A DNA stretch of 64,000 bases, from assembly GCF_036588685.1 (NCBI RefSeq), contig NC_086379.1:31310001-31374000 (forward strand), written 5' to 3'. The stretch is from Mytilus trossulus (Eukaryota). Positions 3,559-64,000 of this stretch are shown piece after piece. The position numbers and the translations under genes are program-made. The first letter of the stretch is position 1; each line of letters opens with the position of its first letter. The notes under the pieces are model-generated. The model was not told where the DNA came from. It ran no database searches and worked only from the letters and a program-made list of their open reading frames with translations.

Positions 3559-3734
3559 AGGGGAAATTAACAATATAAATAGAAGACATCTTATGAAATA
3601 AAGGGGATATATAAATAAAAATACACTTAAAATCGTTACCAGAAAGAGTCAGGGGAAATTAACTATATAAATAGAAGACATGTTATGAGATAAAGGGGGC
3701 TATACAAGTAGAAATACATTTAACATCGTTACCA
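3559..3734. repeat. Diverged tandem duplication, ~91-bp unit x2
   Basis: aggggaaattaac...aaatagaagacat...atcgttacca occurs twice. Confidence 0.75.
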
Positions 3735-4869
3735 AGAGTATCATAACAGGATTTCTCATAACAAGGAATTAATAAAAACTGGAAAGATTTAGAAAAATAA
3801 AAATACAGTTTTGTTTCTAGCATGGCTAAGGGGATCTGATTGGTTAATATAAAAGAAATGTAAATTCAACTAACCCTTTAGCCGTAGCTTATTTCAGATT
3901 TAAAAAAAAAATCTAGTTTCAAATAATTCCTTGTTTAATACAAAACAACTATAAACTACTAATATAACTACATGATAAAAACACATATATTGCACTAACC
4001 AATGTGTGAAAACTTGGCATCATATATAACTGGTACTTAATTACAATCAAATCGTTCACTTCAAAAACAACATAATGGCACCATAATTGACCTCAATATT
4101 CAACACTTCTTATTTCTATCTCTATTAGATGAATAACTTGTCCTCCATTTGTAATATCTTTATATAATTCCAAAAACTTTCTATGAAGTTCAACTTCAAG
4201 GCTTTCAAAAATTTACTTTAAGTATATCACAAGTGCTCTAAATGATTACAACAGTATCAAGCAACCATTTTAAATCCAAATCATCTTTGGTCAATAGCAT
4301 ATTTTTTCTTAAATGACTTAAATTAACTGTCTTTATATGAGAATCTATTTAAAAAAAACTGACATCAAAATATTAGAAGTCATATATTTCAATGACCTAC
4401 CGATCATGATTTACTTTAGTGACTGAAATAAATCTTTTGTGAAAATTCATTATTTTCAAAAATGACAACTAAATGGGAAAATTGCGCCAACATTTCTCAC
4501 GAGTAAAAAAATATATGCATGTTAATGAGAGTTATGAAAGTCAATTTAATGAGTAGGATTGGAGTCCTGAGCTGTTCCACTGAGTATATTCAGTTATTTT
4601 ATATCATATTACATAAGTTACTAAACTTCTATTGCACTGTCTTTTTCTGAGACATACTTAAATGGCAAAATAAATATCTTCAGAATATTTTCATAGTACA
4701 GTGTACAGTGTAACAGGAGGTTTAATATAAATATTAAAACTGATTACAAAAATCAGTGTAACAAATTAACAAGAACCCAATCAACCATAACATGTTTTGG
4801 TATTAAAGTAATAAAAATAGAAATGTTCAATAAATATGAGTATTTGATCTTTTAAGAGCTGAAATAATC

Positions 4870-29700: not shown

Positions 29701-32700
29701 TTATATTTTAAAATACCTTGATTACTGATAAGTTCTAGATGACCCAGATTATATTTTAAAATACCTTGATTACTGGTAAGTTCTAGATGACCCAGATTAT
29801 ATTTTAAAATACATTGATTACTGGTAAGTTCTAGATGACCCAGATTATATTTTAAAATACCTTGATTACTGGTAAGTTCTAGATGACCCAGATTATATTT
29901 TACAATACCTTGATTACTGATAAGTTCTAGATGACCCAGATTATATTTTACAATACCTTGATTACTGATAAGTTCTAGATGACCCAGATTACATTTTAAA
30001 ATACCTTGATTACTGGTAAGTTCTAGATGACCCAGATTATATTTTAAAATACCTTGATTACTGATAAGTTCTAGATGACCCAGATTATATTTTACAATAC
30101 CTTGATTACTGGTAAGTTCTAGATGACCCAGATTATATTTTAAAATACCTTGATTACTGGTAAGTTCTAGATGACCCAGATTTTATTTTAAAATACCTTG
30201 ATTACTGATAAGTTCTAGATGACCCAGATTATATTTTACAATACCTTGATTACTGGTAAGTTCTAGATGACCCAGATTATATTTTAAAATACCTTGATTA
30301 CTGGTAAGTTCTAGATGACCCAGATTATATTTTAAAATACCTTGATTACTGGTAAGTTCTAGATGACCCAGATTACATTTTACAATACCTTGATTACTGG
30401 TAAGTTCTAGATGACCAAGATTATATTTTACAATACCTTGATTACTGATAAGTTCTAGATGACCCAGATTATATTTTACAATACCTTGATTACTGGTAAG
30501 TTCTAGATGACCCAGATTATATTTTACAATACCTTGATTACTGATAAGTTCTAGATGACCCAGATTATATTTTACAATACCTTGATTACTGGTTAGTTCT
30601 AGATGACCCAGATTATATTTTACAATACCTTGATTACTGGTAAGTTCTAGATGACCCAGATTATATTTTAAAATACCTTGATTACTGGTAAGTTCTAGAT
30701 GACCCAGATTAGGTGCAGACAGGAGGTAGTAACGTAACAATCCAGGCTCAGAGTCTTCATCAGTAAATGACAGGACTTCTGTTGTTATTTTGATCTCTGC
30801 TCCTTCCAGGACAACCAGTTCTTTATTGGCTATAACCTTTGGAGGTATTCTGTCTTCTGTAAAAATAAGAACAAGCTAACGTCATTTCACTTGAATTGGT
30901 TCTTATATTATGATGTAGAAATAATGATAATGTGTAATGATAATTGTACAGCTTTGTACTGTTTCTGCTGAACTAACAGTAGATGATAGCTGGTTTGATA
31001 TATATTTCTGTCATATCTGGGTTTTTTCAACGCAATTTAGTTACGGTATAAGAAAAGAGCAGCATTATTTTTTTAAAGACCAAAACTGTAATTAATAGAG
31101 GATGAATCACTTCATTACTGTACACGTTTTTAAATAAAGAGAATTAGTAATCAAAAATGTACTTTAAAATATTTTTTTGTTAGAATGTATACATATGTTG
31201 GAGCCTCTGGCCTTTGTTAGTCTTGTATGATTTTAAATTTTAGTTTCTTGTGTATAATTCAGAGTTTAGTATGAGGTCCATTATCACTGTACTATTATGC
31301 ATATTTTTAGGGGCCAGCTGAAGGACACCTACGGGTGCGGGAATTCTCGCTACATTGAAGACCCATTGGTTGCCTTCGGCTGTTGTTTGCTCTATGGTCG
31401 GGTGATTATCACTTTGACATATTCACCATTTCCTTTCTCAATTTTATATGCAAAAACCTGCATGCACATTTAGTATTCATGTCTTTTGATAATCTTTTTC
31501 AGACATCATAAGGAGAATATGATATCCTAGAAAGTTGTGTATTTGATCAAGAAAGAATATTATGCTAATAAAATAATAGAACAAATATTTGTACATGTAC
31601 ATGTCCTTGCCTAGTCTAAATAATTGTGACGTCTTGAAAGGCTATTGTATTTTTTTTCTTTGAAGCCTTACATTAACACAGGAAGGCATCAAAGCAAAAA
31701 ATTGAGTACCAGATAACTGTTGCTCTTTCAGATGTTTTCTCTTTTAAAACACCTTCCTTATATAAAGCATTTTAGAAACATATTAGAAAATCATCTTGTC
31801 ACAAATTTACCTGTTACAGTTATGTAGAAAATCTGATCTATCAACTTGTTTCCTTCTGGATCTGATACATCAAATTTAAATGTCAAAACACCAGTTATCT
31901 CCCCATTAGGATGTTCAAATTCTAGATGACCTTGATCAACATCTAACTGAGTGAAACTCTTTATTGGTCCTCTTGTAAAAACAGGCACTTTTCTGTTTTG
32001 ATTTGAAATTAACAAACGTCCACCAGTTGGGTCACGGGTCAAAGTGTAGGTCAGTTTCTTATCATCAGAGTCAATGTCTGTTGCTTTCAGATCTTGCGAC
32101 TTTATTGGAATTGTTGATCCTTAATAACACCAAAAAACATTGTCAAACTTCTATGTTTTATGGAAAGTGGTGGATTGTAGTAAATTAAGTTTGTTATTAA
32201 CTATAGCCATGTTATATACTATAAATTCAGAAATTATTAAAAGGAATATTGCAACCTGGTGAGTCAGGCAATACTAACTCATATTATGATTTCAGATAAA
32301 TATATCTGTATGAAATATCTCTGGAAATCGATATACATTTGTAGTATAAATCTCTCAATTTTGTTCAATCTTCACAAATTGTGATAATAAATGGCTGCAC
32401 TAATTAATGAATTGACAGTATACTATCTAACAATTTTGATGTAAATAACCTTATGTAAAGGAGATAACCCTACACTCAAAACAGAAGGGTATTTGATAGC
32501 ACTTTCTGAAAGGCTTTGTCACTAGACCGTATTCTAAAACTTCAGCTTGGTACATTTCAATACATAGGGTGAACAAGAAGGTAAGTGATCAATATCTCTA
32601 AATGTAGTGTTTCAAAGCTGTTGATACATGTTTAAATGCATGCTTTCTTTACATTTCACAAAAACAAATGGCAATATGATTTTCAAATAAATATCTTTTA

Positions 32701-38700: not shown

Positions 38701-41700
38701 CGAAAGTAAAGTTTTTGACGTCATTTTGCACAAATAAAGAGTCTAAGGCAGATATGTGCTCACTGATGTGCACACTTCGAATGATGCACTGCCAATTTAA
38801 CAGTTTACGTCAGAACATCAAATTCATATCAAAGTAATGTTTTAAATCACCTTTTTTTTAATCTAATGGCAATCATTGGGATGGCCATCTGATTTTCATA
38901 ATTGCCTTTTGTGACTTAATCTTAAGGGATTAAAATCGGGATCAGATATAAAATGTCCGGCTGGCTCAAATATTATTTGGAAGCCCTGGTATAGAGATAA
39001 GATATTTGAAATACCTAAATTGTAGGATCAACAGTAAAAAATAGTGCCCAGTTGTCTGCTGGTTCTATGGTTACAGATAAAACTTGATTTGTTAAGATTT
39101 TAAACATACCTAAATTGTAGGACCAACAGTAACTACTGGTGCCCTGTTGTCTGCTGGTTCTATGGTTACAGATAAAACTTGATTTGTAAAGATTTTAAAC
39201 ATACCTTAATTGTAGGACCAACAGTAACTACTGGTGCCCTGTTGTCCACTGGTTCTATAGTTACAGATAGAACCTGATTGGGTAGGATGTTACCACTGCT
39301 GTCTGTCACATTAAATGAGAGAATATCTGAGACTGGTTCACTTCCTATCTCTTTGTCAGCCATGTATCTGTAAACAATACAAATATTTTGCTTAATATAA
39401 ACTAGAGGCTCTAAAGAGCCTGTGTCGCTCACCTTGGTCTATGTGAATATTAAACAAAGGACACAGATGGATTCATGACAACTTTGTGTTTTGGTGATGG
39501 GAATGTGTTTGTACATCTTACTTTACTGTACATTCTTGCGGCTAACAATTATCTCTATCTATAATGAACTTGGCACAGTAGTTTTAGTGGAAAATGTTAG
39601 TAAAAATTTACAAATTTTATGAAGATTGTTAAAAGTTGACTATAAAGGACAATAACTCCTTAGGGGGTCAATTGACCATTTTGGTCATGCTGACTAATTT
39701 TAAGGTATCACTTTGCTGTACATTATTTCTGTTTACAGTTTATCTCTATCTATAATAGTATTCAAAATAATAACCCAAAACGGCAAAATTTCCAATTCAG
39801 GGGCAGCAACCTAACAACAGAATATCCAATCCATCTGAAAACTGCATTTTACACCTTTGTTCTATTTTTAGCCGTGGCAGCCATCTTGGTTGGATTGCAG
39901 GATCATCGAACACATTTTCAAACTAGATACCCCAAAGATGATTGTGGCCAAGTTTGAATTTATTTGGCCCAGTAGTTTCAGAGGAGAAGATTTTGGTAAA
40001 AGATTACTAAGATTTACGAAAAATGGTTAAAAATTGACTAAAAAGGGCAATTACTCCTAAAGGGGTCAACTGACCATTTTGGTCATGTTGCCTTATTTGT
40101 AAATCTTGCTTTGCTAAACATTAGTGCTGTTAACAGTTTATCTCTATCTATTATAATATTCAAGATAATAACCAAAAACAGCAAAATTTCCTAAAAATTA
40201 CCAAATCAGGGGCAGCAACCCAACAATGGATTGTCCGATTCATCTGAAAATTTCAGGTCAGATAGATCTTGACCTGATAAAAATTTTTATTTAGACAGAT
40301 TTGCTGTAAATGCTTTGGTTTTTGAGTTATAAGCCAAGAGCTGCATTTTACCCCTATATTCTATTTTTAGCCATGGCGGCCATCTTGGATGGTTGGCCGG
40401 GTCACCGGACACATTTTTTAAACTAGATACCCCAATGATGATTGTAGCCAAGTTTGGTTTAATTTGGCCCAGTAGTTTCAGAGGAGAAGATTTTTGTAAA
40501 AACGACAGACGACGAAGACGGACGCTGCCGGACGCCGGACGCCAAGTGATGAGAAAAGCTCACTTGGCCCTTTGGGCCAGGTGAGCTAAAAAGAATATTT
40601 GGTATGATTGCCAATGAGACAACTCTCCATAAGAGACCAAATGACACAAAAATTAACAACTATACAAACTAGAAATGAAATACTTTGTATTAACTATTAT
40701 TTACATCCAAGTACAAAAAAGAATGTAATAGTGCTTTTGTTGCTATCCTTCATGGTTATGTTACTAAAGATCTCCAAGCTATCCATGTCAACGAAATCTT
40801 CAGATATTTAGCAATAGATGCTTCATGTGTTTTGAACATACAGTTGTTCAAAAGTAATCTAGGACTAACAAAAAACACATAGCAAAACCTTTTTGTTTTT
40901 TAGTTGCCCAACAAGAGATACAAATATTCCATTCATCATAGATCACTCACTTAAATGAGAAGTACTCTTTATGCATGTTTGAACATATTATATATTAAGG
41001 CAGATCTTTAATTTTTCTGACAAAAACCAAAATAAATCCCTCGTGTGAAGAGCTGACCATATGAACATTTACAGGTATTAACCAATACACACCTTATAAA
41101 GTTCTTATTTGTGTAAACAGCTGACCATATAAACATTTACAGATATTAACCAATACCTACCTTATAAAGTTGTTATTTATGTCATCTTGAGTTATAATGT
41201 TTCCTTCCATCACAACATTCAATTCTTTATAGACCAGCTGTCCATGTACTGGATTAGCCAATAATGTAATCCTCAAATGGTCATCAGAATCATCATCATC
41301 CATAAAACCAAAATCATTACGACTAATAAGGATTGTCTCCCCTGAAAAATATTTCACTATGATTAACTAATGGTCTTTTCTTGCTGAAATTAATTCAATT
41401 AATAACAAATAAATCGCAGGCTTGGAAAAATGTTAAAGCTGAAAAAATCCCATAAAAGAACATGTGTTTTCAATTCTGAATATATATCTTTACAAACAAT
41501 TTTATTTCTGATTTTTTTTTTTTTAATTTAAAAAGATTTCTACTGAATATCCAGTTAATCATTTTGTTAAATATTATTTTCATCCTACTGCATATTAACT
41601 ACAAATATAACTGCATTTTGCTTCTTTGAATTTTATAAACCAGTTATAAAACTGTATTAAACCCACCTTCTCTGACATGAATCCTACAGACAGCAGTTGG

Positions 41701-53700: not shown

Positions 53701-56700
53701 TGGACTCTCACTGGTACACGTATCTAAAAGAGCATAAGGAAGATTTAGTAAGGAGGCAGTACAATACCATGACTTGACCTTGAAAATTGGGAAAACAATT
53801 AAATAATTTAGTCCTTAAAAAACTAGTTTAATTTTATGGATATATGATACTATAGTTAAGCAACTTTACTGCGGAAATAAAAATTGTGATGTGCTGATGA
53901 AAAAACTACCTAAGCAGAAAATGAAATATCATCTCTTAAACTCTTCAACAAACTTTATATTTGAAAAAGAGGATACAATGTGCTCCTCTAATGTACATGA
54001 GTCAACAAATCCGGATAAATACACATATATATATCAGAAATTCAGTATTTCCATTGCAGTTAATAGTGCACTTTTACAAGACAATCCTTAAAGATCTACC
54101 AAAATGTTATTGCTCAAAAATCTTGTAAATTAAATGCTCATGAGCATTTCAGGAATATTTTCGACTATCAAATTTAATCATAATTTGGTTAAGTGAAACA
54201 AGTCATAGTCTGTATCTTTTCATGCTGTATTAGAAATATTGATAAGCTAAATTTTACACTTTAATTCAAATAAAACTTAGATTATTTTTTCTTGATATCT
54301 TTTAAATATAATGCATTAATTAGAATTGGTATCTGATTCTTATGAAGGAGAAGTGTTTTTCTCCAGTGATCTTACCTTTAGGAAGAATACATTCTGAGCA
54401 GCATTCACTTTCCCTGGTTATGTTCAATTCTTTCTAAAAAATTCAAAAACAAAGTTCAAAATTGTAGGTTACATAAAGATGATACAACTTTTAAAAACAA
54501 ACCATCTCATATTTGCTTTTATCGGTAATTCGTATATTTTCCCTTTGATCTTACTGCCTAATATTTTCGAGTATCAACGTACTACTTGTATCACTGAAAA
54601 TATTAGGCAATACATTGTGTGACATCATAATTACAGATAAACAGAATAATAGGTAGTTTCATTTTTGATAATGACTATATCATGTATCTTAACTCGCCCT
54701 AACAGGCTCGTCTAGATATTCCACATGATATAGTCAGTATCAAAAACGAAACTACCTATTATTCTATATATCTCAATTTAAACTGACATACAAATAATAG
54801 AAAATTGATCATGATGGACTCCTTTCATATATAAGTTCTATTTTATAATGTTAAGAAGAAAACAACTGACTAGTTGCTATCTCAAATATCTTACGACCCA
54901 CTGGACAACTTTTCATTTACTTGAACAAAACTTCCGAAACTATAAGTGAACTAAAATATGTTTAACAATGATATTTAGACCTCGAGAAAACAAATCAATC
55001 TTCGATTCCTACCATGTTGGACAGTTAGTGATCTTAATCTCAGGGAGTCTAGCTAAACTTTATAACCAACATGTGAACTTATGAATCAACTATTTTCTGG
55101 TTGTGTTGTCAAGGTCAGAGCCAAATAAAACCTGTTCCTTTTTTAAATCTGGCTATATATTTAACTTGATTAAAAATAACATCACCTGAATTTTTTTGTA
55201 TACATCAAAAGTGCAATGTATTTATAGTTGGATTTTTTAATTTACATAAATGTATATGAAAAGGGTGACAACTCTATTATCCTTGTGACATTTTTGTATA
55301 TTTGGTCCATTTTCAACACAATGGCCTTTCAATGTTTTATACTTGATTTCTGGTCTTTATATATATATAAATAGCTTAAAACTTATTCATTGTTGGAGAA
55401 TAAATTATAAATAATATACAGCATTCAAATTTCTGTGTATTATGTAAATTTAAATGTAATAAACTTCTTAGTTTAATTTCAATACATGTACTATAAAAAG
55501 TTTTATTTCTGCTGAATCATTTGAATATCTTTGATAATACATACAACCTGAATTTACCAATGCATCTTTATTTAATAATACATTTGAACCTACACTTCAT
55601 AATATGTCATTCCCATTTGAATGGTTTTACACTATTCATTTTTGGGCCCTTTGTAGCTTGCTGTTCTGTGTGAGCCAAGGCTCAGTGTTGAAGATGGTAC
55701 TTTGATCTATAATGTTGTTGTTTTTTAAAATTGTGACTTGGATGGAGAGTTGTTTCATTGGCACTCATACCACATCTTCTTATATCAATCCAAGCTACAG
55801 TCTCAACTTAATTAAGGTGGAACCAAATCATACATAACCTATGATTACAAATGTTACTTAACGATCGTAACTGATTATTCTTTTGAATTAAAATCGTAAA
55901 GATTATGTTCGTTCCATATTGCAATAATTTTCTATAAAAGTAGTTGATGATTTCATAAGGTTGATGAGTCTGTGCATATCAATTAATGAAAAACTTTATT
56001 CAACTATAATAACAGTGGAGGATCCAGGGGTTGGAGCCCCCTTTTTCAGGATGATCAATGCATTTGAAGAAGGACAGATAGTTGGACCTCGCCTTTTTTT
56101 ATCCTGGTTTTATCCCTGAATAATGTGCTTACCCCTTCACATTCAAAATCTATCATACAGTCTTTCCTACTGCACACAATTTCTCCCTGTATACAGGTAC
56201 ATGTAGTACAACTGTCTCTATCCCAATGGTCACCATTCTGGAAATAAAAAGTATCATCTTTTTATAATTTTTTTACTTGAACATGCATGAAATATTAGTC
56301 ACTGGACATTAAGCAACCAACAATCGATCAATCATATAGTTTTGAAGCCGTCAAAAGTTGATCATAATCTTAATTGCTGTATTGCATAAGTATAGCTTAC
56401 AGAATGCAAATTACATATATTCTTCAAATTTTACAACAAGTTGCATATATATTTAGTTGTGTTTTTTTTGGTAAGTGAAACTTAGAAAGGAAATTTTTTA
56501 CGTCGTCTTTCTAACTTTGAGGAACCCATTTTCTAGCTGAATATGTAAAGCCATTTTTCATTTTTCAAAATACTTTAAAGCAAATCTTGAGTGTCATAAT
56601 ATTATTGTTGTTAATTCAATTTGTATCTGTGTTATTATATATGTAAAAATATTTAATTAAAAGTCATATTTATCATTTTTCTTATTTTTTAAGCTTAGAC

Positions 56701-59700
56701 ATATGTCTACATTTAAATAAATCTGTCATCTATAATTTTAAACTTACATTAGATTTGTAAAATAAGTTTTTAAACACACCCAAGAGCTTTGAATAAAAAC
56801 AAATTTGGTATGAAAATATGCTTATCATATGATCATTTCATGGACAATATAAATTTAAACACCCATAACTATTTAAATATTTATGCAAAAAGAAGCTATA
56901 CAAATTGTTATGAGAGGCATAATTTGTCAACTAATTCACATAAATGTCCTGCATTAAACTATTGCAATTATAAACTTTATTCTAAATATGACTGCACAAG
57001 GAAAGTACTCAGATTACAAAAGGTTGCTGTTTTCAAGCAAAGTCTTTAATTATTTACATTTAAAAAAAAAAACATGATTCAAAAATGTCAATGTTAATTT
57101 TTGCTTTTATCTTACTACGGTGGATTCATTATTATTAGTTGGATACCTATTTTTGTGGATTTAGTGGGTACAGGTATACCATGTAATTAAATAATCAATG
57201 AATAACAAATTCTAAACTGGTTTGAAAAACCATGAAATAAATATCCAAGAACAAGTTAGTTTTCCTTAATCAATGAAAGTTGGTACTCACGAAAATAATT
57301 GAATCCACAGTAATGTAAATTCAAAAATTATTGCATGCATTTATAAACATGATTATTCAAGAAAGAACAATAATGCAAGATCCAGGGAAATCTGCATACA
57401 GCTGAATGTATCAGATATCAGAATGAGAGTTCTTTTTATTGTGATACTCACCCAGTTGCATTATTTGCATTAATAAAAACCTCACAATAATATTTGAATT
57501 AACAGTATATAAAATATGTGAAATCAACACTCCCCCCTTTCTTTAAGGTCGCAATTCATCATGCAATTATTCTTTCATATAAAAAGAGAAGTTAAACTAA
57601 TGTGTAGAAAAAGGAACAAAACCTTTGAAACTAAATACAGAAGTGCAGAGATAATAACTCGTCTATCGTGACAGTTGGACAGACCGTACATATCAATTCT
57701 ACCCCTTTTTCACATATCTACTCATTTAATTACCTGTCACCTATGTGAACCCATTAATCATATTTGTCATTTCTTTACACAAAAACTGTGTTTGATATAC
57801 CAGCATTTTTAGTCAAATATAGAAACTGTATTGTAAACTATAATACCTCTGTACATATTAAATATTAGCATGGCTTATGAATTACAACTTTAGACATTGT
57901 TTTGGGCAAAACTGATAGTAACGGACATGATTTTTGTCTCAGACATAAACATTAGACCAATCATTAATCGTAGTGGTCATAAATCATATAAAATTATTGA
58001 TAAAAATTATCTGATAGTCTTCAAAAATGTTTGGCTCTATAGAATCAATTATTTAAAAGGTCGTAAAAAGCTCGGTCTTTGAAAGAAAATTCAATAAACA
58101 GTTATCTTAATTTGTTTCAGGACAATACCTTGTCCGCCAATTAACTCATTAAATAGAAATGAAATATTTGAATTATTATTAGTCTACATGTAGCAAGGAC
58201 ATTAAAATACCTAAGCAGTTATTTTAGACTTATCAGTTCAGAAAAAAAATATCAGATTTTTACAACGCCTTTCTATCAATTACATTTTTGTACTAGTTTA
58301 ATGCAGTATTTCTAATTGCTTGCTTTCTTAGATAAAAAGTCAGTAAGCAAAAACTTTTCTTTTTTTTAGTTAAAAAAGATAATGTGTTTGGTATAATAAT
58401 TCTGGTGAGCTATGAAATTTTTCACAAGTTTTAGGGTGCATTTTACATTGATTTTAGTTTAATTATACATCTCTTCAATTGTTTATTGTTTATATGAACT
58501 TTTCACTGCTTTATAATTGTTTAAGAGATTCCAAATCATAATAATTTTAAATAAACAATTGTCAAAAATTGTAAGATACTATATACATAACAAAATACAT
58601 TCATACTTATATACCCCACTGGTAAAAAAAGTTGAAACTTTAAACCATTTCTATGTTTGGGCATTAAAACTGATACTATCGTAAAGAATACATCTATTAT
58701 TGTGTCTTGTCTATCTCTTTACTTATTATAACATTTGATCAATACACACAATATAAGCTTGTGACAACTATATCATTAAATTGAACTGTGATATGAATTG
58801 ACGACTGCATGAGAAGGGCAGACAGAATGTCAGCTAGATAAAATCCAAATATTACCCCTTTTATAAAACTGACATGTATTGTACAGTTACGTGTGGTGAC
58901 TTTGGCATACATCTTAATCTAAAACTGGGTTAGTTTGCTCTAGTTTACATCCTTAACATTTATGATAAAAGATAATGTATTAAATTTAATGTTAAATGTG
59001 ATTTTCTTTAGGAAATAGCAATAACTCTACTTAGACACAGCTGATATATGTTCTCTTTGAAAATCACTTTTAAACAAGAATGTGTCCCCAGTACATGAAT
59101 GCCCCACTCGCACTATCCTTTTCCATGTTCAGTGGACCTTGACATTGGGGTAAAAACTCTAATTTGGCATTAAAAATAGAAAGATCATATCATAAGGAAA
59201 ATGTGTACCAAGTTTGCAGTCGATTGGACTTCAACTTCATCAAAAACTACCTTGACCAAAAACTTAAACCTGAAGCGGGACAGACAGACGGACGAATGGA
59301 CGAACAGACGCACAGACCAGAAAAAATAATGCCCCCCTACTATCGTAGGTGGGGCATAAAAATAGAAAATATATTGCCAGTGAGGTGATCATGCTCCAGA
59401 GGAGAAAGAAGAAGAAGAAGAAGGAGGGATTGATTAATTGATTACTTAACATCCAGTGGCAAATATTTCATACTTGTTCAGGACAAGAAGAAATAAACAC
59501 TATGTTCAATCAATAGGTTCTGCAATGTAGGTCAATGGAGATGAAAGCTTAAATAGTTTAACAGTAGCTTAAGAAAGAGGGTAAGCTGGAGTAGGCAGAA
59601 GGTATATCTTACATTAAAGGGAAAATTCACGATTTTTCACTTATGGTTTAAATATGTTCATTATGACATAATATATATATTCACAAAGTTTTATTGCTAT

Positions 59701-62700
59701 ATGTGCAGTAATAAAGGAGAAATTCAATATTTAATGAAAATATATTAACTACTTCCTGTAGGTCGTGACGTTTTCTCCTGGTTTTTGCATGCCGGGATTT
59801 AAAATACAATCATTAAAAGTCTTGGTTTTTAATCATATTTTAACATAATCGTAAGCGCGCCGATGACTTACGCTTTATCTAAATAACCATCCGATAATAA
59901 GAAGATAAAACGCACAGACGTTCAATTGTACATATTCATGAGATAAATTTTCTATGTTAAACGTATATATTGGAATTATTTTTGTAGACAACACAAAAAG
60001 TTATAAATTTATTTTTAATTAATATATTTTCGGACTGATAAGGTGAACAAAGTAAAGTACAATAATCTGTAAAGACAATATGTTGGTGTACTCTTATTGA
60101 CCTTTTACTATCTCTGCTATGACTTGGTTGATACGATGTGTGTATTCACAGTTCTGTGGCAATACTCGTAGATGGCTTGTTGAAAGGTAAATTTCTATTT
60201 GCACATCTTGCCAGGTGTGACTGTCTATTCGGACCAGTGAATTATAAGACAAGGGAGCATTCAATATACATATTTAAAATATATATTCAAGTTGGTGACA
60301 AATAAAAATTGATCGCCGTGGAATTATTTAATTATGTTTGGTGCTATTATTTATTTTAATTCAAATAAGTTAATTTACTAAGAAATACACAATTTTCGGT
60401 TAAAGACGGGAAACTTAAATCATATGTCCGATTGAAATGATTTACACCTTTTGTCCTTGATTGATGTCTAATAAAAAGGAGAACTTAGAAATTATAAAAA
60501 GCTTTACCAAAGTATTTTTATTTGTCTTTATTAGGCAAATAAATGAATGAGAACACTTAGATTTAGACTTTTTAAAAGCCACGTATAAATTAATAACTGG
60601 AACTCACTGAAGATAACTCTACCGAAGCGGAATATAATATGAACGAATAAAGAAAAAATATTTTTCTACTTGAGAAGTTTTTTAAAAATTGACAGCAAAT
60701 TTAAGGTCTTCTTGGAATGGAATCGAAAAATTACGAATAGATATTCTTTATCAAGTGTGAAAAACGTCAACCAAATTTAATCATAATCGGGGACGTCCTT
60801 ATTAAAATAGTCTTCTTCTCACAACGTATAATACTTAATAACTATTTGACCAAAGATGTTTGAAAACAAAAGACAACGAATTTAATGTCATCTTTCCCTA
60901 TTTTTGAATGTAATTATAAGTCTGTTCAACTGGCAAGAATACCCCTAAAGCGGACAAATATCTGAAAAGCAGTTTATTCTTTGAATTTGCTGTCATTGAA
61001 TATCAAGATAGAAAATAAATCCCGAAAATGATTTGAAACTTTAATATTCAATAGCTTTCCTAGAAAATATTCACATCCCTCGGGGATTATTAGTGTACGT
61101 CCAGTTGCATATGTCGGAACAATTGTGGTGATGACGAATTTCTTTCTTTATTCGAGAACAATCTAATTGATATATAAATCTGTGATTTTACTATGTTCAT
61201 AACTTCGATGAACCAAAGCAAGTTATAGATCGACCTGTATTTAAATCAAATTGGTCCTCTTCTTCTTCTTTTGGTATACAATAGTCTATCGAATTGGATG
61301 ATTACATACTGTTAGTATACGTGGACTAGTCTATTTACAAAACTTTTACCCCAATTTGCACAAAATGTATGTTTTTTTCTTATGTTCAATGTATACATGT
61401 ATATATTTTAAATTGCGCTGTAGTTCCGTAACTTTCTATCCGGGCGTATAAATGATACGTCGACAAGTGCGCACATTTTTTTAATCAACATTTCTGGAAT
61501 GATCCAACGAATGTAGGACAGAAAGTCACAGGACAAAAAGTCACGGACAAAAAGTCACAGGACAAAAAGTCACAATTCAGTTTTTAGAGTATTTTTCTTT
61601 AAACAAGAAAAAATAGTTTTAAAAACAAAGTTTTTGTTTTTTTCTTGAACTCTTATATATAAAGCAACTTTGTAATTAAAATTTATTCAATAAATATCAA
61701 TGATGAACAAATAATTGTTCTGAAAACAAAATGTCAAAGTGACTTTGTACTTAAATGGCTTCATGGTGCCAAGAAATGTCCCCTTTGCATGATTAAAATT
61801 TGATAATTTTTCATTTAACAAAGCTTATGAACAATGTCACAACTGAAAAATAAATAGATGTAATAAAAAGAAAATATTTCAAGATCTTTCTCTTATATAT
61901 TCAAACAATTGTCAAAAAATAATTGTGACTTTTTGTCCTGTGACTTTTCGTCCTATCAAATTTGTAACTTTATGTCCTGTGACTTTATGTCCTTTACTAT
62001 TATTCTGGAATATTACATATTAGCACCTCTTTACCAAACAAACCATTTACTTATATTTGTGAGATTTTCATCTTGCTTTGGGTACAATAATTGTATTGTA
62101 AACAAGATGACCAAGGAGTTGATGACTATTATAATACATACCATAATGTGCAGTAAAACTTAAAGGAATTTGTTACATCCAATGGAGATAACTCTTCATA
62201 CCTTATATTGTATCATGGCATCTGTACAGTTGGGTCCAACACAAACATACCTTATAATTTATCATGGCATCTGTACAGTAAGATCCAACACAAACATACC
62301 TTATAATGTATCATGGCATCTGTACAGTAAGATCCAACACAAACATACCTTATAATGTATCTTGGCATCTGTACAGTAAGATCCAACACAGGAAGGACAA
62401 CATGATCCTGGTCTTCTTTCCATGGATTTTCCCTGTAATGAGACATATTAAATGATCAAACTTATATTGTCCGACATTTTGAAATACAAGACATATAGAA
62501 TTTTTTTATATAAAGATTTGTAGCCAATTTCTGAGATGTCAATATAATATCCTTTACTATTGACAATGAGTAAATATTACATTTTCCCAGAGACATATAA
62601 TACAATTATATGTCTCTGATTTTCCCAAATTTACCCTTGGAAAAAATACGTATATTTGTATATATCTTCAATTTTTTTTTTTATAAATAATATTCTTTAC

Positions 62701-63893
62701 ACCAGAAATTTTATTTATAAACAAGCGTATGAGTTAAGTAATGACTGGTATATTATATCACTTTCGGACATGCAAGACAGAGATGTATATTATACATGCA
62801 CCTGATAGTTCAGTTATAAGTTATCGGCCGTGTACACTGATCAATACCTACAGAAGTGAAACGATGCATGAACTTGCAAGCCCGACAGGAAATCGCTTGA
62901 ATACCTGGACGTGTCACCTTACACCCCTCACAATACCTTTGGGAGTAATACCTTAAGCCATGCGGGTGATCAGTGGAGCGAAGATCCTAATTTATTTGCA
63001 TAAAGTATATTACTTTAAAGAATTATGAACGAATTAGATTTTCGAAAACAATTTTCACGGAACACTTATTTATGATTTGAACTTTGACTTTTTAACCGAT
63101 TCCAATATTAACAGTTTAAAAATAACAGACTATATGGTTATTAAAAAAATAAGAACATTGTCCGTATCAAGTAAGTTAGTCAGATAAAACAACCGTACGA
63201 TTGACAAGATATCGACACGTAATTAAGACTACATCGGTTACTGTAGTTTTGTTTCTTTGTGGTTTATAGACATATCGTGATTTTTATTTGGACAAGATAA
63301 CAAAATGGCGGAAGGCCGAGAACTGATACTCAAAATTTAAAATCGATGGTGATCTCTTATCTAGCGGAATAAAACTTTAATATTTATAAATTTGAGCATT
63401 TTTATACAAAATGGACATAATATCAATTTTTGATTTTTTTGCGAAGTTTCCCTTTAAGTCACATATTAACTCTCAGAATTGTTGCACAAGATCTTTAATG
63501 TGCAAACAAAGTGACACTCTGACATGAAATTTCTTGTGGTCTATTAATTGCTTGTATTGTAAACAAGATGACCAAGGAGTTGATGACTATTATAATACAT
63601 ACCATAATGTGCAGTAAAACTTAAAGGAATTTGTTACATCCAATGGAGATAACTCTTCATACCTTATATTGTATCATGGCATCTGTACAGTTGGGTCCAA
63701 CACAAACATACCTTATAATTTATCATGGCATCTGTACAGTAAGATCCAACACAAACATACCTTATAATGTATCATGGCATCTGTACAGTAAGATCCAACA
63801 CAAACATACCTTATAATGTATCTTGGCATCTGTACAGTAAGATCCAACACAGGAAGGACAACATGATCCTGGTCTTCTTTCCATGGATTTTCC
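5159..63893 (-). CDS. FRAS1: FRAS1 (Fraser extracellular matrix complex subunit 1) orthologue, multi-exon, 5'-incomplete in this window
   Basis: 57 exons with GT-AG boundaries and consistent phases join into one ORF of about 3,470 aa. Domain order is VWC - furin-like - CSPG - Calx-beta - FRAS1 C-terminal region (PSPGYPLVCVTPCD, GHQWYLQV) - TM - GTEV*. VWC plus furin-like repeats upstream of CSPG distinguish FRAS1 from FREM1/2/3. Confidence 0.95.
6019..6173. repeat. Minisatellite, ~53-bp unit x3
   Basis: tgacatcatttacaagagagaggggatcccctgtatccctgcactatc repeated. Confidence 0.9.
6658..7083 (+). mobile_element. SINE-like interspersed repeat, family A
   Basis: Co-linear with ~34025-34458; tail gtctcattggcaatcataccacat.ttcttttt recurs at ~40589-40665(-), ~47815-47905(-) and ~55610-55783(+). 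Confidence 0.75.
7248..7376 (-). CDS. FRAS1: FRAS1 exon (C-terminal ectodomain)
   Basis: DKGNRDVEVRHFHSVPFNAKF...PGVDGFYLSVDPLYK; phase 0-0. Confidence 0.9.
8230..9137. mobile_element. Probable Kolobok-like non-autonomous element, only one terminus recognised
   Basis: Right end gggccacc|ttaa (reverse complement TTAA-GGTGG, like the 15683 MITE); CpG-richer interior; left end not found. Confidence 0.35.
9321..9433 (-). CDS. FRAS1: FRAS1 exon
   Basis: GSDGYVPTFDPQGDVYGDGPQFGCLQPSPKLQYRFLIL; phase 1-0. Confidence 0.9.
9935..10027 (-). CDS. FRAS1: FRAS1 exon
   Basis: GEVLYGRVLWNPAQDLREAYSLSIEKVYLCT; phase 1-1. Confidence 0.9.
10569..10732 (-). CDS. FRAS1: FRAS1 exon
   Basis: FEVPIAFQQSNRPVPLVYSLDTRFEL...; phase 2-1. 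Confidence 0.9.
10737..11083. mobile_element. Fold-back element (short IR pair plus long terminal hairpin)
   Basis: ataattacatt at 10737 / aatgtaattat at 10934; hairpin arms taagtattgaatgcttctttttgtaa...aaagcgttgacc / ggtcaacgcttt...ttacaaaaagaagcattcaattctta. Confidence 0.7.
11105..11179. repeat. 29-bp tandem repeat x2.6
   Basis: tgtaaatgtaagcagtaaatagcatgatc. Confidence 0.85.
11455..11558 (-). CDS. FRAS1: FRAS1 exon
   Basis: DYTGRYTVELIPCLVKSTQ...PCTAKQPQ; phase 0-2. Confidence 0.9.
11731..11891 (-). CDS. FRAS1: FRAS1 exon
   Basis: MYVPEHHTL...TFDSPHQLWRATSDYNLK; phase 1-0. Confidence 0.9.
12414..12672 (-). CDS. FRAS1: FRAS1 exon
   Basis: VKDNGKTYLTVRVPLYV...GWGSLQHHTEMEFSFYY...TKFR; phase 0-1. 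Confidence 0.92.
13117..13893 (-). CDS. FRAS1: FRAS1 exon (large, post-Calx-beta region)
   Basis: PCDVHYP...VLDSIYF...LVDLCGGKVVSDFQ; 777 nt, phase 0-0. Confidence 0.93.
14457..14706. repeat. 52/54-bp tandem repeat copying the exon 3' end and splice donor (4 extra copies)
   Basis: acttac|tgtgacacaaactaaaggataacc with exon-end copies starting at 14465, 14517, 14571, 14623 and 14675. Confidence 0.95.
14675..14758 (-). CDS. FRAS1: FRAS1 exon
   Basis: VVSLLHYDNVDIGMEQAPSPGYPLVCVT; phase 0-0; donor duplicated in the intron. Confidence 0.9.
15370..15557 (-). CDS. FRAS1: FRAS1 exon (Calx-beta)
   Basis: VRSVEFSVDVIY...EWHESF...GSLVLPTPPV; phase 1-0. Confidence 0.9.
15683..15957. mobile_element. 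Kolobok-like MITE
   Basis: TIR GGTGGTACC(C/T)AACACT (15/16 match); TTAA TSD at 15679-15682 and 15958-15961. Confidence 0.88.
16155..16355 (-). CDS. FRAS1: FRAS1 exon (Calx-beta)
   Basis: PRIKFKLADYSIMEP...RCSTRDGSALSGLDY...FKP; phase 1-1. Confidence 0.9.
16741..17374 (+). mobile_element. Helentron-associated (HINE-like) element with three ~167-bp internal tandem units
   Basis: Start aacaagaatgtgtcc; units at 16799, 16965 and 17134; GACA/GAAC microsatellite; terminal hairpin atgccc...gggcat plus A run. Confidence 0.8.
17526..17682 (-). CDS. FRAS1: FRAS1 exon (Calx-beta)
   Basis: VKNCSVNIVDDGDYEPKELFYLRL...VNDED; phase 0-1. Confidence 0.9.
17931..18136 (-). CDS. FRAS1: FRAS1 exon (Calx-beta)
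   Basis: PIMHFDSNEYTVDE...RSGDLSFESSVICYTRQ...FLPGEK; phase 1-0. Confidence 0.92.
18647..18794 (-). CDS. FRAS1: FRAS1 exon (Calx-beta)
   Basis: KCRITILDDAADPKLEGNETFAVFLS...; phase 0-1. Confidence 0.9.
19321..19532 (-). CDS. FRAS1: FRAS1 exon (Calx-beta)
   Basis: SIIHLSLSQYHFDE...VWCATR...FAPGETIQ; phase 1-0. Confidence 0.92.
20009..20132 (-). CDS. FRAS1: FRAS1 exon (Calx-beta)
   Basis: IIDDSEYESSEQFELVL...GPND; phase 0-1. Confidence 0.9.
20445..22672. mobile_element. Fold-back element interrupted by a nested Harbinger-like element
   Basis: Hairpin 20447-20594; IR pair ttattacattgg at 20597 / ccaatgtaagaa at 22659. Confidence 0.55.
20828..22051. mobile_element. Non-autonomous PIF/Harbinger-like element
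   Basis: 33-bp TIR GGCCA.G.TTTTTTAATTTGTTGGTTTACGGAT; TAA TSD at 20825-20827 and 22052-22054. Confidence 0.85.
22725..22894 (-). CDS. FRAS1: FRAS1 exon (Calx-beta)
   Basis: DLSSSVSVVCYT...ESGSDYISR...FQPGMTRANCDVK; phase 1-0. Confidence 0.92.
23450..23530 (-). CDS. FRAS1: FRAS1 exon (Calx-beta)
   Basis: PTIQFKDLVYSVNETSGVVSAALIRT; phase 1-1. Confidence 0.88.
23937..24201 (-). CDS. FRAS1: FRAS1 exon (Calx-beta)
   Basis: YSVVTCKT...PGDQDYREHSGQVQFD...INDDSIFEGPERF...DEED; phase 0-1. Confidence 0.92.
24619..24842 (-). CDS. FRAS1: FRAS1 exon (CSPG/Calx-beta junction)
   Basis: DIDHEVISY...FHIMWSVIEF...YNVSESAG...GNLKQ; phase 1-0. Confidence 0.92.
25264..25414 (-). CDS. FRAS1: FRAS1 exon (CSPG repeat)
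   Basis: AYNLITPRELEATDVDT...PEYGRLE...SFTQ; phase 0-1. Confidence 0.9.
25710..25802 (-). CDS. FRAS1: FRAS1 exon (CSPG repeat)
   Basis: DFEIDIMPLDDGSPVLKTNLGLQFLEQSGNQ; phase 0-0. Confidence 0.88.
26343..26597 (-). CDS. FRAS1: FRAS1 exon (CSPG repeat, contains RGD)
   Basis: ESSLIFHIVNLPVHG...YHHDGSETLQDNFSFTVTDG...SRGD; phase 0-0. Confidence 0.92.
27595..27735 (-). CDS. FRAS1: FRAS1 exon (CSPG repeat)
   Basis: ITQKLYITITPVDDEIPIVTNNGLRVQEGVRKTITEYDLKAEDQDTP; phase 0-0. Confidence 0.92.
27989..28126. repeat. ~23-bp A-rich minisatellite
   Basis: actacaagaaaatacaata(tg/ga) repeated about 6 times. Confidence 0.85.
28409..28533 (-). CDS. FRAS1: FRAS1 exon (CSPG repeat)
   Basis: IPISEFTQSDLAANSVCYIHT...DSFTFSVSDGSNQ; phase 1-0. 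Confidence 0.92.
28618..28889 (+). mobile_element. HINE-like element, same family as 16741, single unit
   Basis: aacaagaatgtgtcc start, GACA microsatellite, gccc..gggcataaaaa end. Confidence 0.75.
28968..30710. repeat. 48-bp minisatellite (~36 units) derived from the exon 3' end plus splice donor
   Basis: Unit atattttaaaataccttgattactggtaagttctagatgacccagatt; minus strand encodes NLGHLELTSNQGILKY; contiguous with exon 30677-30856. Confidence 0.97.
30677..30856 (-). CDS. FRAS1: FRAS1 exon (CSPG repeat); its 3' end is the seed of the 48-bp array
   Basis: DRIPPKVIANKELVVLEG...DEDSEPGLLRYYLLSAPNLGHLELTSNQ; phase 1-1. Confidence 0.9.
31198..31448 (+). mobile_element. SINE-like interspersed repeat, family B (3' part)
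   Basis: ggagcctctggcctttgttagtc...gaagacccattgg...ctcaattttat; reverse-complement match to 35741-35990. Confidence 0.75.
31811..32119 (-). CDS. FRAS1: FRAS1 exon (CSPG repeat)
   Basis: STIPIKSQDLKATDIDSDD...SFTQLDVDQG...FYITVT; AAG acceptor; phase 1-1. Confidence 0.88.
32844..33024 (-). CDS. FRAS1: FRAS1 exon (CSPG repeat)
   Basis: EILDDLIVYQHNG...VSDG...DDETPRLAINRGL; phase 0-1. Confidence 0.9.
33452..33534 (-). CDS. FRAS1: FRAS1 exon (CSPG repeat)
   Basis: TLGRRDHISEPLSRIRPIQQAGTFTYQ; phase 1-0. Confidence 0.85.
33915..34458 (+). mobile_element. SINE-like interspersed repeat, family A (longer copy)
   Basis: Co-linear with 6658-7083; tail ends ~15 nt from the donor at 34474-34475. Confidence 0.75.
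34476..34629 (-). CDS. FRAS1: FRAS1 exon (CSPG repeat)
   Basis: LLNDEEPLLVTEQLFVQE...DIDTHPDQL...PQH; phase 0-1. Confidence 0.9.
35266..35456 (-). CDS. FRAS1: FRAS1 exon (CSPG repeat)
   Basis: GSEKTVGVPITQF...YIQSDHKNKEPVTDSFLFHVTDG; phase 1-0. Confidence 0.92.
35741..36315 (-). mobile_element. SINE-like interspersed repeat, family B
   Basis: Reverse complement of 31198-31448; shares the gcctgtcccaagtcaggagcct core with family A. Confidence 0.75.
36530..36662 (-). CDS. FRAS1: FRAS1 exon (CSPG repeat)
   Basis: IDEGGEVLLTTDNVKVTDQDT...PKFGNI; phase 0-1. Confidence 0.9.
36735..37048. mobile_element. Fold-back element (long hairpin plus short IR pair)
   Basis: Hairpin 36738-36875; ataatttaatt at 36884 / aattaaattat at 37036. 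Confidence 0.7.
37523..38988. mobile_element. Non-autonomous hAT-like element
   Basis: TIR CA(A/G)GGCTTCCAAA; 8-bp TSD gtatagat / gtatagag (7/8 match); subterminal gtccggctgg at both ends. Confidence 0.8.
38999..39288. repeat. 95-bp tandem repeat copying the exon 3' end and donor (2 extra copies)
   Basis: atac|ct(a/t)aattgtagga at 39013, 39108 and 39203. Confidence 0.9.
39205..39367 (-). CDS. FRAS1: FRAS1 exon (CSPG repeat)
   Basis: YMADKEIGSEPVSDILSFNVTD...PVDNRAPVVTVGPTIK; phase 2-0. Confidence 0.9.
39400..40590 (+). mobile_element. Helentron-associated (HINE-like) element, second family
   Basis: 5' hairpin ggctctaaagagcc, subTIR gctcacct, two long internal direct repeats, GACG microsatellite, 3' hairpin agctcacttggccc-ttt-gggccaggtgagct plus A run. 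Confidence 0.8.
41043..41183. repeat. 68-bp tandem duplication copying the exon 3' end and donor (1 extra copy)
   Basis: agctgaccatat.aacatttacag.tattaaccaatac..ac|cttataaagtt.ttattt with exon-end copies at 41093 and 41161. Confidence 0.85.
41161..41341 (-). CDS. FRAS1: FRAS1 exon (CSPG repeat)
   Basis: ETILISRNDF...DDDSDDHL...PVHGQL...ITQDDINNNFI; phase 1-2. Confidence 0.9.
41667..41876 (-). CDS. FRAS1: FRAS1 exon (CSPG repeat)
   Basis: ESFNYKEF...SASDGKH...VDKSAP...VRE; phase 1-1. Confidence 0.88.
42314..42580 (-). CDS. FRAS1: FRAS1 exon (CSPG repeat)
   Basis: SDG...IRILPVNNLPPSF...SDPDTS...PKRG; phase 1-1. Confidence 0.9.
43125..43380 (-). CDS. FRAS1: FRAS1 exon (CSPG repeat)
   Basis: VFEDQVVPVT...DPDTHNGEIIY...QFTQADLMHNKIIYHPP; phase 0-1. 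Confidence 0.9.
43796..43918 (-). CDS. FRAS1: FRAS1 exon (CSPG repeat)
   Basis: VRDSFDPPNVLKEQTMHIKI...PGVRLGMS; phase 0-0. Confidence 0.87.
44086..44258. repeat. 49-bp minisatellite x3.5
   Basis: tttggtaaagagatccctacatgcattaatgatatccaagctaaagatg. Confidence 0.92.
44572..44750 (-). CDS. FRAS1: FRAS1 exon (CSPG repeat)
   Basis: EILMLVP...FLQRDINEGRIWYQNTG...DVVTFE; phase 1-0. Confidence 0.9.
45300..45456 (-). CDS. FRAS1: FRAS1 exon (CSPG repeat)
   Basis: ENLSPLIVNN...IYTLNPTTNNPQQ; phase 0-1. Confidence 0.88.
46106..46416. mobile_element. Penelope-like element fragment with an inverted terminal segment
   Basis: 12-bp TSD catgataatata (46094-46105 and 46417-46428); 56-bp inverted repeat 46106-46161 / 46256-46311 (1 mismatch); contains a minimal hammerhead motif. 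Confidence 0.8.
46158..46207 (-). ncRNA. Minimal type I hammerhead ribozyme (Penelope type)
   Basis: Minus strand: TATT-GTC CTGAAGA C GCCA-cgcttgt-TGGC GAAAC AT GTC^ GAC-cac-AATA; core CUGANGA/GAAA, G10.1-C11.1 pair, GUC cleavage triplet, palindromic ACAUGU stem III. Confidence 0.82.
46580..46776 (-). CDS. FRAS1: FRAS1 exon (CSPG repeat)
   Basis: PLHGKFIDRG...SFSVEEL...QVTDGYH...IRQK; phase 1-0. Confidence 0.88.
47183..47386 (-). CDS. FRAS1: FRAS1 exon (CSPG repeat)
   Basis: RISFKAFDRQLYS...DHPPQLVRN; phase 1-1. Confidence 0.87.
48045..48323 (-). CDS. FRAS1: FRAS1 exon (first CSPG repeat)
   Basis: NEQPPTIQL...DPDTPLDSL...PPTNG...ELKDGKVRFIH; phase 1-1. Confidence 0.88.
48731..48871 (-). 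CDS. FRAS1: FRAS1 exon (furin-like repeat)
   Basis: CPEHCMECMSSTDCSQC...CVPTCGKGYY...CE; phase 1-1. Confidence 0.9.
49145..49279 (-). CDS. FRAS1: FRAS1 exon (furin-like repeat)
   Basis: CGSGCLRCESNSICHAC...CVRHCKPTQYVDGRQCK; phase 1-1. Confidence 0.9.
49766..49918 (-). CDS. FRAS1: FRAS1 exon (furin-like repeat)
   Basis: CGFGCGKC...CLQC...CMRACPVGRY...CR; phase 1-1. Confidence 0.9.
50290..50574 (-). CDS. FRAS1: FRAS1 exon (two furin-like repeats)
   Basis: CPATCQTC...CHPSCKSCSGPTDTNCLSC...; phase 1-1. Confidence 0.92.
50607..50836 (+). mobile_element. HINE-like element, same family as 16741, internally deleted
   Basis: gaatgtgtccatagtac...caaaaactaccttgaccaaaaac...gcccctctactatc. Confidence 0.72.
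51175..51318 (-). CDS. FRAS1: FRAS1 exon (furin-like repeat)
   Basis: CDTSCSLCLGPKDNQCLAC...CVDHCSSSSYLQNGECL; phase 1-1. Confidence 0.9.
52047..52187 (-). CDS. FRAS1: FRAS1 exon (furin-like repeat)
   Basis: CHDSCKTCVDITRYHCQTC...CVSRCGMGYYQ...CY; phase 1-1. Confidence 0.9.
52440..52589 (-). CDS. FRAS1: FRAS1 exon (furin-like repeat)
   Basis: TCATECKDC...CTEC...GRCVQKCKDGLY...CH; phase 1-1. Confidence 0.9.
52905..53052 (-). CDS. FRAS1: FRAS1 exon (VWC domain)
   Basis: TGDSWQPDSCTLCQC...CPICP...PGECCGKC; AAG acceptor; phase 0-1. Confidence 0.88.
53271..53357 (-). CDS. FRAS1: FRAS1 exon (VWC domain)
   Basis: NEMLIHQPGKCCKECVPRPTCYFGGEMFH; phase 0-0. Confidence 0.88.
53590..53723 (-). CDS. 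FRAS1: FRAS1 exon (VWC domain)
   Basis: TCTSESPARYHGDIWNVTDCEFCTCRQGKVQCFTAVCEPAICLE; phase 1-0. Confidence 0.9.
54376..54433 (-). CDS. FRAS1: FRAS1 exon (VWC domain)
   Basis: KELNITRESECCSECILPK; phase 0-1. Confidence 0.82.
54518..54770. mobile_element. Fold-back element (short IR pair plus terminal hairpin)
   Basis: tttatcggtaatt / aattacagataaa; hairpin 54643-54765. Confidence 0.7.
56133..56237 (-). CDS. FRAS1: FRAS1 exon (VWC domain)
   Basis: NGDHWDRDSCTTCTCIQGEIVCSRKDCMIDFECEG; phase 0-0. Confidence 0.9.
57118..57310. mobile_element. Tc1/mariner-like MITE
   Basis: TIR c(g/t)gtggattca; TA on both flanks; abuts a second MITE at 57313-57507. Confidence 0.7.
59072..59361 (+). mobile_element. 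HINE-like element, same family as 16741, single unit
   Basis: aaacaagaatgtgtcc...GACG microsatellite...gccccc.tactatcgtaggtggggcataaaa. Confidence 0.8.
61501..62002. mobile_element. MULE-like MITE with arrayed subterminal motifs
   Basis: Four ggaca(a/g)aaagtcac motifs at the left, inverted copies at the right; 9-bp direct repeat ttctggaat at 61492-61500 and 62003-62011. Confidence 0.65.
62195..62390. repeat. 49-bp tandem repeat copying the exon 3' end and donor (3 extra copies); repeated at 63656-63851
   Basis: catac|cttata with donors at 62200, 62249, 62298 and 62347. Confidence 0.92.
62349..62432 (-). CDS. FRAS1: FRAS1 VWC exon, duplicate copy located inside the Kolobok-like element
   Basis: ttacag|GKSMERRPGSCCPSCVGSYCTDAKIHYK|gtatgt; phase 0-0; identical to 63810-63893; not the frame shown in the ORF track. 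Confidence 0.7.
63810..63893 (-). CDS. FRAS1: FRAS1 VWC exon (presumed original copy)
   Basis: GKSMERRPGSCCPSCVGSYCTDAKIHYK; CCxxC VWC end plus start of the next VWC; joins in frame to NGDHW at 56237. Confidence 0.8.
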
Positions 63894-64000
63894 CTGTAAT
63901 GAGACATATTAAATGATCAAACTTATATTGTCCGACATTTTGAAATACAAGACATATAGAATTTTTTTATATAAAGATTTGTAGCCAATTTCTGAGATGT

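Follow-up and report, generated by a model that had tools for sequence, protein, structure and literature searches.

A two-piece copy of flanking DNA, including a whole exon of a FRAS1-like gene, inside a Kolobok-type element of Mytilus trossulus

The stretch analysed here, a 64,000-nucleotide window of the Mytilus trossulus genome (NCBI RefSeq assembly GCF_036588685.1, contig NC_086379.1, positions 31,310,001 to 31,374,000 of the forward strand), carries a large FRAS1-like gene on the minus strand. One of its introns holds a non-coding terminal inverted repeat (TIR) element of Kolobok type, and within that element lies an exact copy of DNA from just outside the element's right end, including a complete exon of the gene. 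The reading favoured here, with a probability of about 0.8, is that this 539-bp, two-piece copy arose by template-switching DNA repair when the element was already in place. The element itself seems to have hosted this repair passively and not to have driven it, and a transposase was likely not needed for the capture. Positions are window coordinates, carried on into the neighbouring DNA where they exceed 64000.

Results

The larger piece of the insert, X, occupies 62091-62542 on the plus strand and matches 63552-64003 base for base and in direct orientation over 452 bp, such that its donor (63552-64000 within the window) extends 3 bp beyond the window end. A sequence-only reading of the window had reported the identity of 62091-62539 with 63552-64000 and proposed a very recent copying of flanking host DNA into the element, in the same orientation, in the same intron and in frame; all of this is supported. 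That reading had also raised a simple 1461-bp tandem duplication, and this is ruled out: identity ends at 64003, past which the 1461-bp diagonal drops to background (9-21 of 50 positions identical). The description of the insert as one direct copy holds for X and misses a second piece, a target duplication and a nested foldback element beside the insert. This second piece, Y, is an 89-bp inverted intron copy on the minus strand at 62004-62092, 100% identical to the reverse complement of 64129-64217, its single source in the genome, which lies 129-217 bp beyond the window end. Y and X meet at a 2-bp overlap (junction 2), a microhomology whose length is within chance, and the 125 bp of donor DNA between their sources are absent from the insert. 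Both pieces are 100% identical to the right flank of the element, with sources 98 bp and 0.7 kb outside its right end. All sources lie within 2.3 kb of the insert and occur nowhere else in the assembly; a search of the 1.3-Gb genome with 62091-62539 returned matches at two places only, the copy and the donor. At its outer joints the insert carries plus-strand fillers of 2 nt (62002-62003, junction 1) and 7 nt (62543-62549, junction 3), and these are bordered on each side by the same 12 bp of element sequence on the plus strand (61990-62001 and 62550-62561), with near-zero loss of element sequence at the site. A 9-mer common to junction 1 and the element near 61490 is likely due to chance.

The element itself spans 3836 bp (59618-63453) between TTAA target-site copies at 59614-59617 and 63454-63457, as the sequence-only reading had placed it. 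Its ends are AGGGAAA...TTTCCCT, that is AG...CT, with an imperfect TIR of about 12 bp, and its longest open reading frame, 98 amino acids, reaches into the insert; no transposase is encoded. Both ends are high-copy in the assembly (at least 496 left-end and at least 931 right-end candidates), and the 40 scored of each are 98-100% identical. Forty other loci were fetched; four (L036-L038 and L040), in which the motifs matched one end or none, were dropped, leaving a full-length set of 37 copies, the window copy and 36 others with about 2-5 kb of flank each. Most copies are 2.8-3.4 kb long, and 35 of the 37 have TTAA on both sides; L021 and L026 have an intact right terminus with the right TTAA replaced (AAAA and AACA, respectively). 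The same two ends are paired in all 36 other copies, which rules out an origin of the termini from two different families. The insert and the doubled 12-mer occur in the window copy only (1/37): the stretch at 62091-62540 is absent from all other copies, and flank-derived DNA within the element was found in none of the 36, bar a nested repeat adjoining L012 and a 34-bp match in L017. The first 21 copies differ by 0.2-1.8%, and the family is young.

Membership in Kolobok rests on the ends and the target-site duplication (TSD). Of the other candidates, piggyBac, the termini of which we take to be 5'-CC...GG-3' with a TTAA TSD, was rejected on the AG...CT ends, and KolobokP on the absence of long terminal direct repeats from the element's self-comparison. 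Kolobok elements, known from molluscs, are described in the available text of one study as having a TTAA TSD, 5'-RR and YY-3' termini and a short imperfect TIR (PMC9587614). The mussel element shares these features and differs in lacking a transposase and long terminal direct repeats. An autonomous partner with the same ends was found in none of 50 loci around matches to PF20700, which we take to be a mark of Kolobok transposases; this is a small sample, 20 of these loci having been read over 10 kb and scanned for TIRs, from a search in which 114 matches were scored of 1043 candidates. PF20700 transposase genes of like score occur in tandem arrays with a period of 4.0-4.7 kb (G000:C1 at 16.0-55.0 Mb, C10 at 3.62 Mb, C303, C319 and C504), a pattern that fits the expectation for KolobokP multimers.

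The capture site adjoins a nested foldback element with 14-15-bp subterminal repeats (61509-61985 in the window copy, fold z -9.8). This nested element, about 540 bp long with an 8-bp TSD seen in sister copies, lies inside most family copies and is absent from seven. A 37-bp deletion took its right end in the window copy, L010, L025 and L026, and this deletion is older than the capture because the latter three share it yet lack the insert. Further, the element sequence of the window copy contains 21 substitutions absent from all 26 copies aligned, 17 of them away from indel edges (over 3276 bp of element), and a private 29-bp deletion. At six of the private sites (59741, 59845, 59972, 62747, 62999 and 63409) the pooled family depth of a public sequencing run, X1, shows the other base. 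Insert and donor, by comparison, differ at 0 of 539 positions, whereas an insert as old as the element would predict 5.6-6.9 differences (P 0.001-0.004; P rises to 0.03-0.06 if a single lineage is counted). Because the element carries 17-21 private substitutions and the insert none, the capture is likely younger than the insertion of the element.

This order of events bears on an alternative in which the DNA was captured during or just after transposition, by abortive excision or by gap repair following the action of the transposase of the family or of the nested element. The family is young, with copies 0.2-1.8% apart and intact ends, the site is at the right end of the nested element and the allele segregates, all as such a process would have it. 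The break, however, is internal, 0.9 kb from the nearer end and without loss of sequence, the right end of the nested element had already been lost in sister copies, private substitutions predate the insert and none of the 36 other copies shows a capture; transposition-linked capture is therefore considered improbable.

That the allele is real was examined in public runs matching the stretch, which include mollusc metagenomes. In run X1, a contig exits the donor at 64003 and passes through the filler into the element, that is, across junction 3; X1 also has a contig over the junction of element and flank and a contig of the empty site, with a single TTAA. Each of the two junction contigs has a depth of 27; added to the 40.3 of the single part, this agrees with the 66.1 of the duplicated part. 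Since, moreover, both the junction and the empty site are present, X1 is heterozygous for the element with its insert. Another X1 contig ends at 63581, where the branch at 63552 predicts an end; the lack of X1 cover at 63582-63743 (filtering or graph cleaning) supports no inference. Run X3, which carries another organism label, has the empty site, again with a single TTAA, and an unbroken donor. Depth in X2 is 10-12 over the exon, similar to its flank. The pooled survey of run depth is swamped by family copies, which hide most joints, and X8 and X9 are uninformative.

These data also bear on the suspicion, voiced in the sequence-only reading, that the duplication is an assembly artefact. The two copies are 100% identical and junctions 1 and 2 are not directly seen in the runs, as would be expected of an artefact or of a tandem duplication. 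Junction 3, on the other hand, occurs in a public run at the depth of the element-flank junction, which settles the matter for the right junction, and a target duplication with fillers is not expected from an assembler. Together with the end of identity at 64003, this leaves an artefact or tandem duplication very little probability, the least of the alternatives weighed here.

The exon within X is 84 bp long and on the minus strand, with AG and GT splice sites, and lies at 63810-63893 in its native position and at 62349-62432 in the copy. Its product (GKSMER...HYK) has 28 amino acids with four cysteines, and the whole exon was copied in frame (phase 0-0) together with intron sequence on either side, 110 bp upstream and 258 bp downstream. 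A 49-bp tandem repeat of four units lies across the donor site (62197-62390 in the copy), each unit having a donor-like site (at +0, +49, +98 and +147). The completeness of both exon copies, their splice sites, cysteines and donor repeats had been noted from the sequence and are borne out; the term complete VWC exon applies to the exon and not to the domain, because the exon encodes the three final cysteines of one VWC repeat and the opening cysteine of the following one. In transcript order, the upstream exon is followed by a 5087-bp intron, the native exon, 1377 bp, the copy, 6111 bp and the next exon; without the element the intron is 3732 bp long. Contigs of run X10 join the native exon to both neighbours, an exon ending at 68981, beyond the window, and one starting at 56237, and contigs of X6 join it on the downstream side only. 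The exon is present once, without a back-joint, in these X6 and X10 contigs, a result that speaks neither for nor against inclusion of both copies, given that their being RNA is a guess, that contigs drop rare forms and that the genotype is not established.

The host gene is termed FRAS1-like by its domain matches and their order. Pfam searches of nine exon frames detected VWC in five, Calx-beta in one, a weak furin-like match in one, a weak Cadherin_3 match in one and no domain in one. The order of these domains and a hydrophobic segment agree with what we take to be the layout of FRAS1: VWC repeats, furin-like repeats, CSPG/cadherin-like repeats, Calx-beta domains and a membrane anchor, in this order. 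An Atlas search with one exon gave no usable match. Three tandem repeats straddle exon donors in this gene, namely 28968-30711 (48 bp x 36), 38998-39279 (95 bp x 3) and 63658-63851 (49 bp x 4), and every unit therefore repeats the donor. The 48-bp array keeps long frames of 230 and 407 amino acids open in 16-residue units and could provide in-frame extensions of the protein.

Other nested insertions were seen among the family copies. Flank capture was considered and rejected for L008/L028, L019 and L025, the large inserts of which carry terminal repeats and are nested transposons. The insert of L025 (G000:C7, near 75445000; element positions 352-2148) is 1797 bp long, sits at a TTAA and is bounded by direct repeats of 466 bp that are identical to one another and have TIRs of their own; it resembles a non-coding derivative of KolobokP. 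A 579-bp nested TIR element with AGGAG...CTCCT ends is common to L008, L028 and L038; in L008 and L028 it occupies one shared family site, and the family therefore does carry nested DNA to new places. Relatives of it, 81-84% identical, are free near L010 and L027. The nested insert of L019 (element positions 2631-4680) is 2050 bp long and has long TIRs and what appears to be an 8-bp TSD; that of L023 (2502-2925) is 424 bp long and contains a 115-bp palindrome. The foldback element described above has unlike termini, one of which starts with GGTAA, presumably a feature of Merlin elements; it has matches at L012:951-1959 and L076:8887-8969, and two free copies adjoin L012 in tandem. Just left of the window copy, at 59100-59450, lies a very high-copy repeat with a summed depth in the millions, and 59438-59497 is a 75% inverted match of 56261-56320.

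Discussion

The structure of the insert suggests a path by which repair may have produced it. The DNA would have broken, or a replication fork stalled, where the nested foldback element has its base; the nascent strand would then have copied 89 nt from one strand of a template 2.1 kb away, switched at the 2-bp overlap to the other strand and copied 452 nt, up to a hairpin. On its return 12 bp behind the point of departure, the strand would have copied these 12 bp again, giving three template switches in total. The same product would result if the break left two ends with 12-nt 3' overhangs and both primed on one donor strand, the plus strand. Features of the site are consistent with such a path. 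The break is at the base of the nested stem, the fold of which has the z of -9.8 given above, and 7 of the 24 structural events that distinguish the copies affect a 130-bp zone around it (P about 0.001-0.006, for a zone picked post hoc). About 9 bp past the end of X in the donor, ahead of the source of Y, is a hairpin (64013-64048, beyond the window; z -2.5) in the top 0.7% of 1088 windows by stability. A sequence of 8 bp across junction 3 (62537-62544) recurs in inverted form 14 bp away (62558-62565), a match that 3.8% of 3000 random donors also reach.

Several points weigh against template-switching repair after insertion. The statistics for the junction and the hairpin are modest and concern features chosen after inspection. 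No run shows junction 1 or junction 2 directly, and one X1 contig continues unbroken across the donor of Y. X1 may be the assembled animal, in which case it is silent on allele frequency. An allele with the element and without the insert was not seen in the runs, only empty sites; the order of events consequently rests on substitution counts, and these could be distorted by a lost source copy or by gene conversion. Finally, the 12-bp target duplication together with the 5' inversion is what twin priming by long interspersed nuclear elements (LINEs) would also produce, a process that leaves a TSD, an inverted 5' part and a small deletion and overlap at the inversion point.

On this last alternative, a plus-strand transcript over 63552-64217, antisense to the gene, would have been reverse-transcribed in cis from both 3' overhangs of a staggered break. 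The geometry agrees: a 12-bp TSD, an inverted upstream part, a 125-nt gap, a 2-bp overlap and both pieces from one strand. However, the insert differs from LINE products in having no poly(A) or repeat tail, with a filler of only 2 nt and neither AATAAA nor ATTAAA at 64150-64230; the template would be unspliced as well as antisense; and X6 and X10, if they are RNA, cover the exon only. Moreover, the insert lies beside its source, and the odds that a retro-insertion placed at random in 1.3 Gb would land within 2.3 kb of where it came from are a few in a million, such that only a process in cis remains for twin priming. RNA-templated insertion is accordingly judged unlikely, slightly more so than capture linked to transposition.

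Set beside known systems, the repair reading places the locus, on its sequence, within the definition of a single-copy Pack-TIR, a known kind of capture. In the available portions of the study by Tan and colleagues, single-copy Pack-TIRs of animals are attributed to transposition-independent gap filling from nearby DNA after insertion, with the source less than 15 kb away in 56.9% of cases and exon sequence present in 13.4% (Tan et al. 2021, PMC8277862). Host-gene capture, described in the sequence-only reading as best known from Pack-MULEs, CACTAs and Helitrons, is thus not special to these, as Kolobok Pack-TIRs are on record: Supplementary Data 1 has eight Kolobok rows, from frogs and zebrafish, three with a source less than 3 kb away (PMC8277862). 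Expressed cases in the same source comprise retained introns, extensions of untranslated regions and non-coding RNAs, and the terms sea hare, Aplysia, oyster and mussel had no match in its 12 supplementary files (PMC8277862). The mussel locus resembles these cases in its internal host DNA from a nearby source outside transposable elements, a short overlap at the joint, little or no loss of element sequence, single-copy state and a capture that likely followed insertion: its ends match the family, the internal DNA is absent from the family, the source is close and in cis, and the microhomology is 2 bp. It differs in being in a mollusc and still heterozygous, in consisting of two pieces, one inverted, with a 12-bp target duplication, and in putting a whole coding exon in frame into the next intron of its own gene. 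Multicopy Pack-TIRs, with captured DNA at new sites, have no counterpart here; the assembly has one insert and no exported copy.

The mixed orientation of the pieces has parallels in human tumours and cells, for which the available accounts describe local n-jumps and cycles of templated insertions (Li et al. 2020, PMC7025897) and templated insertions by microhomology-mediated break-induced replication (Osia et al. 2021, PMC8421209). As in those accounts, local templates would have been copied and pasted in mixed orientation with a return that re-replicated a host segment, and internal exons can be duplicated; the mussel event differs in its size of 0.5 kb, its mollusc genome and its position inside a transposon. 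Snap-back synthesis-dependent microhomology-mediated end joining, as far as its available description goes, leaves a short inverted repeat spanning junction and filler (Yu and McVey 2010, PMC2943611). The 8-bp inverted repeat across junction 3 and the 7-nt filler are alike in this respect, although this process accounts for the filler only and not for the 539-bp copy. A literature search, covering few subscription journals, returned no paper in which a Pack-TIR provides a second copy of a coding exon in the gene it came from, and none on Pack-TIRs of molluscs. To the known cases the locus adds a further host group, an allele that is still heterozygous, an inversion combined with a target duplication, and a whole in-frame exon duplicated within its gene.

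For the gene, the most likely outcome is that one of the two exons is used and the protein is unchanged, the copies being identical. Inclusion of both would add 28 amino acids, the four cysteines of which would likely lack native partners and be left unpaired, because VWC pairing, as we take it to be, joins none of them to another cysteine of the same exon. A more far-reaching outcome, which we regard as unlikely, is a segregating exon-shuffling allele, in which a young, intact TIR element serves as a cassette for a phase 0-0 exon; carriers would splice in the copy, and the loaded element would still be mobile to intronic TTAA sites. Use of the copy alongside or in place of the native exon would then mark the origin of a tandem or mutually exclusive exon pair. 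Without expression or movement, the locus is one structural variant in a genome rich in them; hemizygous regions are described as widespread in molluscs in the portion available of one preprint (bioRxiv 10.1101/2020.09.15.298695).

The locus nonetheless provides an unusually clean, unmutated record of the birth of a single-copy Pack-TIR, in which source, target duplication, fillers and empty site are all readable. Its timing favours repair over transposition, and the locus extends Pack-TIRs to a mollusc. Further, a heterozygote that carries the whole exon twice, with the copy in frame and 1.4 kb downstream, would allow a direct test of a newborn duplicate exon in splicing.

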